Source of the DNA: Acidimicrobiia bacterium
GTDB taxonomy: Bacteria; Actinomycetota; Acidimicrobiia; Spongiisociales; UBA11373
NCBI GenBank assembly: GCA_040878325.1
Contig: JBBDMM010000001.1
Coordinates: 1 to 64,000 of the forward strand
Reading direction: 5' to 3'
DNA: 64,000 nucleotides
A program made the position numbers. Positions 29,201 to 32,200 of the stretch are shown here, piece after piece. Within the stretch, counting starts at the first letter, position 1; each line of letters begins with the position of its first letter.

Positions 29201-32200
29201 ACCCTCCGATGCCGTCGCCGAGCTGATTGAAATAGGCGTTGATCTGCCGGGCGCGGCGAGCGGCAAGCACCACGAGGGTAAAGCGCTCCTTGGTACTCTC
29301 GAGCACGGCTTCGATCGGCGGGTCGACCATCATCAGGGAATCCATTATAGGGGCGAGGGGCATCGTTCCCGTCGTACGATCAATGCCTTCGCGGCGGCGT
29401 CGGTTGCGTACCTCCGGCGGGAAACGAACAGCGAGGCTTCTACGCTCCACCGCGATGAACCACGCACCGCCCCGGACACCGGGAAAGATCGCCATTGCCG
29501 GCAACATCGGCAGCGGAAAGTCGTCAGTGGCGAGGCGGGTAGTGGAGATCACCGGGTGGCCGCTGGTGTCGACCGGATCGCTGTTCCGGGAACTGGCTGC
29601 CCGGCGGGGGCTGACGGTGCTCGAGTTGAACCAACTCGCCGAATCTGATCCCACGATCGACGCCGAGGTGGACGGGAACCTCATCCGCCTCGCCGCGACC
29701 GACCAGGCGGCCGTGATCGACTCCCGCCTGGCATGGCACTTCGTACCCCAGTCGTTCAAGGTCTACCTCGTCGTCGACCCGAAGGCTGCCGTAGGCCGGG
29801 TCTACGGAGCGGGCCGCGCCGATGAGCGATATTCATCGGTAGAAGAGGCCACCGCCGAGGTGCTCGCCCGTCAAGCGGTCGAAGCCGAGCGGTATCACGA
29901 CACCTACGGCGTCACAGTCGACGACTGGCGCAACTACGACCTCATCGTCGATACGAGTCGGGTTGGCGTCGATACGGTGGCCGAGGTGGTCATCGCACAT
30001 CTCGATGAGCACCCGCCCGCAGAATCTCCGAAACCAACCTGCCATTTCGACCCGGCACGCCTCATGGCGTCACCCGACACGGTCGGCGCCCCGACCATCG
30101 ACCCGATCGTCCGGGTGGCAGTACACGACGATCAGATAGCCGTCGTCAGCGGACACGAGTTGGTGGCGACAGCGCTGGACCGAGATGATCGACTGATCCG
30201 TTGCGAGCTGATTGCCTTCGAAGACGAGGAGGTCGATCCCGGGGTATCGGCCATCCAGTTCGTCTCGGCGATCACCGCGGGGCGAGACATGGATGAACAG
30301 TGAGCCCTCAGGGCCCCAGTTCCTCCAGCAACGCTTTCCGCTGCTGAGTCCCCAGACCTCGTACCCGACGGTTGTCGGCTATCCCCAACCGATCCATCAG
30401 CCGAAACGACTTGACCTTCCCCAGGCCGGGGAGCGCGGTCAGAATCGCCTTCACCTTCATGCCGGCGATCATCTCGTCGTCGGTCCGACCCAGCACATCC
30501 GCGAGGGTGGCCTCGCCCGTCCGCAGCTCCTCGCGTACTGCAGCCCGCACCCGCCGTGCTTCCGCCGCCTTGGCAAGCGCGGCCGCCCGCTGCTCGGGAG
30601 AGAGGTATGGAGGGGTCGACACATGTCGAGCATAAGAAGCGCAGCACCCGCTGGTCAACGAGCCGCCAACCCGTCCCGAATGGTTGGAAGCAGATCGGAC
30701 CCGGCGATCAGGTGGGTGGCGCCGCGATCGACGGCGCGGGTGGCTTCCTCGGCGGTGGCAACACGTACCAACCTATCTGCCGCGGGCGCCACCTGGGCGA
30801 CGACGCCGAGGTCGGGCGAGTCACACAAGACTCCGACCGCACCTGCCCCGACGGCGAGCTCCGCGAGGCGAGATACCGTCCGGCCGCGCGACTGACCGAG
30901 CCGCAGCGCCGCCACTTCCGCGTCTCCTTGCCCGGGGCGTAGGGTCACCGCCACCACTCGCACGCCTGCCGCGGCTACTGCGGCCACCAGATCGGGGCCA
31001 TCCTTGGCTTGAACCGTCACCCACGTGGCGCCGTAGTCGGCCAGGCGAGTTGCTGCCGCTACGGCGGAAGCGGTGTCACCGTGAAGGCCGGCGAGAACCA
31101 TCACCGGCCCCAGCCCGGCCAACGCCGATACGATCGCCGGCCCCGGGCCCAAGATCAGTTCGGCGCCGACCACGAACCCGTCGACCTCGCCGAGTGCCGC
31201 CGCGGAGCGGACCGCATCTTCGGCGCTTCGCCCTGAAACGACCGCCAGCAGCCCGGTCATCCGTCGACCCGCTCAGTCGCGAGGCGGGAGAGCACGCCGT
31301 TGACGAATCCCCCACTGCGCTCGGTGGAATACAGCTTCGCGAGCCGCACTGCCTCCGAGATGACGACAGCCACCGGGATGTCGGGACGGTTGAGCAGTTC
31401 CCATAGGGCGATCCGCAGGATGTTGCGGTCGATCACCGGCATCCTCTCGACCCGCCACCCGGACGAGACCGCGCCGATCGCCCCGTCGAGGGCAGCACGG
31501 TCGGCCCACACACCGGTCACGAGCCCACCAGCCCGTCCGCTCAATTCCTCGGTGTCGGGAGACTCGCGTCGCTGGTCTGCCTGGTAGAGCGTGCGGAGCG
31601 CCGCCTCGCGGGCCTCCGCGGGCTTCATGTGACCCGGGTCATGTACGAGCCAGAGCGGGTGTCGACTTTGATCCGGTCGCCGGTCTCCACGAACAGCGGA
31701 ACCTGGACCACCAGCCCGGTGTCCGTCGTCGCCGGCTTGGTGCCCGCCGACGACCGATCGCCCTTCACCCCTGGTTCCGTGTAGGCCACTTCCATCTCGA
31801 CCGACGCCGGCAGGTCGATCCCGATCGCCTTGCCCTCGTACATCGAGAGGCTGACGTTGTCCCCCTCCCTGAGATACGCCTCCGCCGAGCCGACCTCATC
31901 GCCCTTCAGGGCGAGCTGGGAGAAGGTCTCGCCGTCCATGAAGTGAAACCCGAAGTCGTCGCGATACAGGAACTGGTGGGGACGCCGGGTGATGATCGCT
32001 TGCTGGACCGGCTCGTCGGCGCGAAAGGTCCGGTCGACTACGGCGCCGGAGTCTATGTTCTTCAACTTCATGCGTACGAAAGCCTTGCCCTTCCCGGGCT
32101 TGACGTGCTGGTAGTCGACGATCTGGAAGATGCCGTCATCCAGGTCCAGCGTCATGCCGGGCCGTACGTCGTTCGTCGAGACCATCGCCGCCTCCAGTCA

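Follow-up and report, generated by a model that had tools for sequence, protein, structure and literature searches.

A kinase encoded in the window, the whole 64,000-nucleotide stretch of an Acidimicrobiia genome that we analysed, is very probably a GMP kinase, possibly of wider specificity, that replaces the lost guanylate kinase gene (gmk) without being its orthologue. Judging from sequence comparison, we base this reading on the family to which the protein belongs, the slot that its gene occupies, its mutual exclusion with gmk, the retention of the other NMP kinases and the residue changes in its active site. The first-pass annotation had made the same prediction, which gains support from complete exclusion of the two genes in the order, a swap in Clostridia, the retention of Cmk and the apparent change of the cytosine-reading residues.

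The kinase gene and its locus

An archaeal (d)CMP-kinase family gene had been annotated in the gmk slot, between mihF and rpoZ–coaBC, and both the family and the slot hold (Table 1). Residues 12–184 of the protein score 103.2 bits with TIGR02173 (cut-off 102.1), the flanking genes match their own families, and the Cmk and Adk models match the protein at its P-loop only. All three flanking genes are read from the minus strand and the kinase gene from the opposite one. The spacer between rpoZ and the kinase gene must, we infer, supply the latter with a promoter of its own; a promoter scan of this spacer gave no promoter or sigma-70 consensus.

Table 1. Features of the kinase locus in the window
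Feature	Position	Strand	Remarks
Kinase gene, 282 aa, TIGR02173/COG1102 family	29455..30303	+	ATG to TGA open reading frame; inverted relative to the operon
NMP-kinase domain, residues 12–184	29488..30006	+	P-loop G16–K22, R45, acidic pair D69/D73, R91, R139, E143, R146
C-terminal extension, about residues 186–282	30010..30300	+	Probably a degenerate ParB/sulfiredoxin-type domain
mihF, upstream border of the gmk slot	30308..30658	-	NF041260, 122.2 bits; convergent with the kinase gene, 4 bp apart
rpoZ, downstream border of the gmk slot	29103..29327	-	TIGR00690, 56.9 bits; divergent from the kinase gene
Spacer between the divergent rpoZ and kinase genes	29328..29454	.	Lies between both genes
coaBC, conserved operon neighbour, after rpoZ	27890..29095	-	TIGR00521, 386.7 bits

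Further genes lie close to the slot. A PPK2-family polyphosphate kinase gene (23692–24495, plus strand; TIGR03709, 387 bits) is 5 kb away, and PPK2 matches occur at a similar distance from the slot in several other carriers. The product of priA (26087–27850, minus strand) is short, at 587 aa, and scores under all PriA cut-offs. A pyrF-like gene (30655–31260, minus strand; 201 aa) reaches 20.8 vs 27 bits with PF00215, far under family cut-offs. The D-x-K-x-x-D motif usual in OMP decarboxylases is not visible in its product; the gene may thus encode a degenerate form of this enzyme that the operon has retained.

The host genome is 98.94% complete. As previously annotated, it appears to have no gmk: PF00625 finds no match at E ≤ 10, and a tblastn search with four Gmk proteins yields P-loop-level matches only (best E 0.002). 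The ordinary cmk is present as well (C12:47781–48407, 208.8 bits), as are Adk, PyrH and GuaA, and a Tmk-like frame is recognised by motif only. Since GuaA is present, GMP is made, and GMP kinase is the only NMP kinase that the genome is missing.

Exchange with gmk in the order

Among the 41 genomes of the family, PF00625 is over its cut-off in 33, and the kinase is found in exactly the remaining eight. In all eight carriers (family f1) the kinase gene adjoins rpoZ and is inverted relative to mihF–rpoZ–coaBC, whereas gmk lies between mihF and rpoZ in the same orientation as both at 6 of 6 family loci and at further gmk loci. These counts exactly reproduce the earlier ones; the inversion and the C-terminal extension of about 95 residues are additions to them.

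Across the order, 218 of 261 genomes have gmk only, 37 the kinase only, six neither and none both, so that the kinase occurs in 0 of 218 gmk genomes against 37 of 43 gmk-less ones. The first-pass annotation, in a slightly different sample, had 46 gmk-less genomes of 251. The kinase was counted at E ≤ 1e-12 with TIGR02173, only 13 candidates per genome being scored, and the gmk set includes four unpublished genomes (G244, G080, G285 and G091); all counts are taken over assemblies of uneven completeness, in which kin are not independent. In families f2 and f4 the order mihF–kinase–rpoZ is co-oriented at 29 of 29 loci, and the proteins consist of a single domain.

Genomes lacking both genes had been noted before. 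None of the six in the order has an rpoZ match, although rpoZ is found in five of five gmk-bearing controls, and the locus is thus unassembled in them. A third solution for GMP in such genomes is ruled out, as 10 of 10 (order and Clostridia together) are without rpoZ too.

Genus g13 captures the exchange at close range. Six of its seven genomes have gmk, and G033 is the lone carrier of the kinase. G033 nests among the gmk-bearing genomes both in a CoaBC tree (as sister of G032, 100/99) and in a NusB+EF-P tree, and its DNA identity with G032 ends at the edges of the slot. The cassette was therefore exchanged, in one direction or the other, at least once within the genus. Non-orthologous genes are known to displace others in place. 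Kinase and gmk would have been exchanged between conserved flanks more than once, in the order, in a Clostridia family and in this genus. Of the 131 kinase sequences, 92 were placed in a free tree, which separates clades for f1 (100/99), f2+f4 (96/98) and the slot proteins of Clostridia (100/100). We nevertheless do not claim that the f1 and f2/f4 kinases arose independently, because a single clade of f1, f2 and f4 is not rejected (AU test, p 0.27).

Occurrence in other phyla

The two genes also alternate in an unrelated Clostridia family, in a slot of its own after rpoZ. Of its 121 genomes, 93 have a strong gmk match (E ≤ 1e-27), 11 a weak or partial one only and 17 none. rpoZ lies directly upstream of gmk at 9 of 10 gmk loci, and at all 18 strong TIGR02173 loci the kinase gene directly follows rpoZ, in the place of gmk. 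None of these 18 genomes has a strong gmk; PF00625 is absent from 12 and weak in six. One further genome has a partial kinase, and four are without gmk, kinase and rpoZ.

The exclusion that had been claimed for other phyla is thus borne out in the Clostridia slot, but it is not strict. Outside the slot, four Clostridia genomes with strong gmk also carry a longer kinase–ParB fusion (L117–L120), and 5 of 36 carriers in the phylum of Saccharimonadales (Patescibacteria) have both genes. Three other weak TIGR02173 matches in Clostridia are members of a different family. In the Saccharimonadales phylum (n = 151) the kinase is found in 36 genomes, PF00625 in 63 and neither in 57; the five genomes with both compare with 15 expected under independence, and since kin are non-independent this is a trend only. 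Among 36 carriers from a GTDB scan, PF00625 is missing in 31, weak in one and over its cut-off in four. The Gmk-like proteins of these four score 134.9, 101.8, 43.4 and 35.1 with TIGR03263 (cut-off 160.45) and are encoded outside the rpoZ operon.

The gmk order in the Clostridia family is yicC–remA–rpoZ–gmk–priA (L089–L098), unlike the order remA–gmk–rpoZ of Bacillota, and many of its genomes contain extra weak gmk-like paralogues. The kinase frame is broken at nine Clostridia loci and one archaeal locus (L040, L041, L046–L048, L050–L053 and L049), probably through assembly errors. Spirochaetes are another home of TIGR02173. On metagenome contigs (61 of 80 loci, with 113 of 118 neighbouring ORFs scanned) the neighbours of the kinase are heterogeneous, with no consistent pathway and no purine signal, and phage records and viral contigs contain no homologue.

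Fold and active-site residues

A model of residues 1–192 (pLDDT 91.4) has an NMP kinase fold. In agreement with the first-pass annotation, it is nearest to the uncharacterised kinases 3HDT (Z 18.5, rmsd 2.9, 163 residues aligned) and 3FDI (Z 16.9), and Cmk 3R20 has a similar fold (Z 16.2, rmsd 3.1, 168 aligned). Among the best 50 fold matches other NMP kinases come first and no Gmk structure appears, though such lists exclude no family. No solved structure of a TIGR02173 member was found.

A profile–profile alignment with 32 Cmk sequences, including that of E. coli (probability 99.5–99.8), pairs Arg41, Arg131, Arg181, Asp185 and Arg188 of Cmk with R45, R91, R139, E143 and R146 of the kinase. 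According to PMC3603445, Arg41 and Arg131 of Cmk bind phosphate, and Arg110, Asp132 and Ser36 contact cytosine. All 32 Cmk sequences have Arg110 and Asp132; in the kinase, D69 aligns with the former and a gap with the latter, and some 40 residues of Cmk's NMP-binding domain are missing. Acidic residues fill positions 69 and 73 in all 131 family members, 31 archaeal ones included. G41, R45, D69, D73, R91, R139, E143 and R146 are common to 31 of 31 archaeal and 8 of 8 family-f1 sequences.

In the mechanism that we propose, the enzyme would act as an ATP-dependent NMP kinase that supplies the step from GMP to GDP in place of Gmk. ATP would be bound at the P-loop, and R45, R91, R139, E143 and R146 would hold the phosphate and ribose of the NMP, as their counterparts do in Cmk. 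The helix with D69 and D73 would take the place of Arg110. Loss of Asp132 and of the 40-residue Cmk insertion would reshape the base pocket, in which the carboxylates could read the N1/N2 edge of guanine; they could also read another amino group, such as that of cytosine or adenine.

C-terminal extension and ParB fusions

The roughly 95 additional C-terminal residues of the window kinase have no match in Pfam. In alignments these residues pair with the C-terminal tails of longer homologues, and a profile built on them matches intact kinase–ParB fusions with a probability of 68% (E 5e-5). The tail of one such homologue, L119, resembles in its fold sulfiredoxin (Z 9.1, rmsd 3.1, 88 residues aligned), SerK (Z 7.9) and KorB (Z 7.9). 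The extension is therefore probably a degenerate ParB/sulfiredoxin-type domain, the fold being seen in the homologue and linked to the window protein by the profile match. G-H-x-R, which we take to be the motif of the ParB/sulfiredoxin domain, is seen in L118–L120 and L223; the aligned place in the window protein reads S-G-H-E-L, without the arginine. Against Pfam the tails yielded a single match, PF08857 on L120 (E 0.026), and when the aligned C-terminal parts were compared with PDB sequences, only repeat-protein noise came back.

Fusions of the kinase with a ParB/sulfiredoxin domain appear to be mobile (L117–L120, L027, L222 and L224) and occur in Clostridia, Micavibrio and on Rhodococcus plasmids; four Rhodococcus plasmids and a Parabacteroides plasmid carry them (seven records in all). 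The Parabacteroides fusion, with its G-H-x-R motif intact, lies in the run gmd, GDP-fucose synthase, cupin, fusion, radical SAM, dehydrogenase, hpt (L223:3752–11622, NZ_CP143950.1). The gmd, GDP-fucose synthase and hpt neighbours favour a guanine nucleotide, as a single anecdote. At six metagenome loci (L243, L245, L251, L269, L273 and L281), which probably represent one lineage, a kinase fusion is directly upstream of the anaerobic ribonucleotide reductase gene (NrdD).

Archaeal members of the family

To our knowledge, no GMP kinase is known from archaea. In the phylum to which the Halococcus record belongs, 100 of 101 genomes have TIGR02173 over its cut-off, and 0 of 10 have PF00625. In our control set, TIGR02173 occurs only in the archaea (4 of 4, none of them with PF00625) and PF00625 only in the 10 bacteria. 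Canonical Cmk is over its cut-off in 0 of 3 archaeal carriers and 0 of 4 control archaea. Some archaeal genomes have second TIGR02173 copies (G515:C7:460484–460975 and four others), one of which lies inside a 1408-residue open frame.

According to the supplements of PMC6249222, COG1102 is an essential gene of both S. islandicus and M. maripaludis and, among the columns listed, is present in 44 of 45 archaea; the rows found there contain no proven-function entry for the Sulfolobus orthologues. Since the neighbours of the COG1102 gene in S. islandicus (M164_1439, 1442 and 1443) are given there as non-essential, polarity is an improbable cause of its essentiality. The same source lists AK6 (M164_1691) as non-essential in S. 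islandicus. Essentiality alone does not discriminate between substrates, because an essential enzyme can also be a CMP kinase (title of PDB 1Q3T) and the archaea are without canonical Cmk.

With a near-universal family, PF00625 absent, the acidic pair kept, COG1102 essential and AK6 dispensable, we lean towards the whole TIGR02173/COG1102 family being the missing archaeal guanylate kinase, swapped repeatedly for gmk in bacteria. This names one conserved, essential family as a candidate and makes a long-standing gap testable. If it is true, a gene found in nearly all archaea would have its annotation corrected and a gap in archaeal metabolic models would be filled; the bacterial exchange would be a clean example of a core enzyme displaced in place, and repeatedly, by a non-orthologue, with base specificity changed on a Cmk-like scaffold.

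Alternative explanations

The most serious alternative, possible though not what we favour, is a broad-specificity NMP kinase that covers GMP without being dedicated to it and serves both CMP and GMP in archaea. The physiology would be that of a GMP kinase, and only the name of the enzyme would differ. Archaea lacking canonical Cmk need some handler for CMP, the fold is Cmk-like, and accessory copies coexist with gmk, all of which would fit. Nevertheless, the earlier observation that gmk-less carriers keep Cmk holds widely: canonical Cmk is over its cut-off in 58 of 64 carriers (order 35/36, Clostridia 19/19, other bacteria 4/6, archaea 0/3), that is, in 58 of 61 bacterial ones, and the gene thus tracks the loss of gmk, not that of cmk. 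The invariant acidic pair also suggests one defined base contact.

We consider it improbable that the protein is a true second CMP kinase in a slot occupied by coincidence, with GMP left to PPK2 or to a relaxed Adk or Cmk. Its database label is (d)CMP kinase, PPK2 could in principle phosphorylate GMP, and besides the PPK2 gene in the window PF03976 is found in 31 of 36 other carriers of the order. However, PF03976 occurs in only 2 of 9 other carriers and in 0 of 19 Clostridia carriers; the last count rules out PPK2 as a general compensator for gmk. A second CMP kinase would also leave unexplained why the two genes co-occur in 0 of 218 gmk genomes and why the kinase sits in the gmk slot of two phyla, and the cytosine readers appear to be lost.

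An assembly artefact, with gmk in unassembled DNA and the kinase as an unrelated insertion, can be dismissed as most improbable: all genomes are assemblies, 10 have neither gene and 13 candidates per genome were scored, but in the window, as in dozens of genomes that include the single-contig G009, G256 and G278, the slot and both of its flanks form one unbroken sequence, and the 10 genomes with neither gene are the ones that also lack an rpoZ match.

Comparison with known families

The literature that we covered, which leaves most subscription papers and bioRxiv supplements outside its scope, contains no assay of a TIGR02173 member and no report of a gmk swap; PMC2876114, PMC4508563 and PMC10248530 add nothing decisive on the function of the kinase.

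AK6/Fap7 (COG1936, arCOG01038) is a broad-specificity NMP kinase that has been proposed for the archaeal GMP step (PMC4177761). Like the window kinase it belongs to the small P-loop NMP kinases known from archaea, and 4CVN gives a profile match with E 8e-11. It is nevertheless a family different from COG1102 and, in PMC6249222, differs from it in being dispensable to S. islandicus.

With Gmk (PF00625, TIGR03263) the window kinase shares the slot, a one-for-one distribution, the predicted reaction and the class of P-loop NMP kinases. Sequence similarity stops at the P-loop, with no family match, and atlas rows of Gmk-domain proteins at 0.85–0.86 are leads only. The description of the gene as a second, unrelated GMP kinase was right in that it is not orthologous to Gmk; 'unrelated' is too strong, both being P-loop NMP kinases.

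Compared with Cmk (TIGR00017, e.g., E. coli 1KDO and S. aureus 2H92), the window kinase scores 28.8 bits against a cut-off of 135.55. The phosphate and ribose residues of Cmk have counterparts in it, whereas Arg110 is replaced by Asp and Asp132 is without a counterpart.

The protein is instead a member of TIGR02173 (cyt_kin_arch; COG1102, arCOG01037, in the neighbourhood of PF13189), whose cut-off it passes. It differs from the archaeal members in being bacterial, in its place in the gmk slot, in its inversion and in its 95-residue C-terminal domain. Whereas TIGR02173 is annotated as (d)CMP kinase, the residues and the distribution of the window kinase point to GMP and away from CMP.
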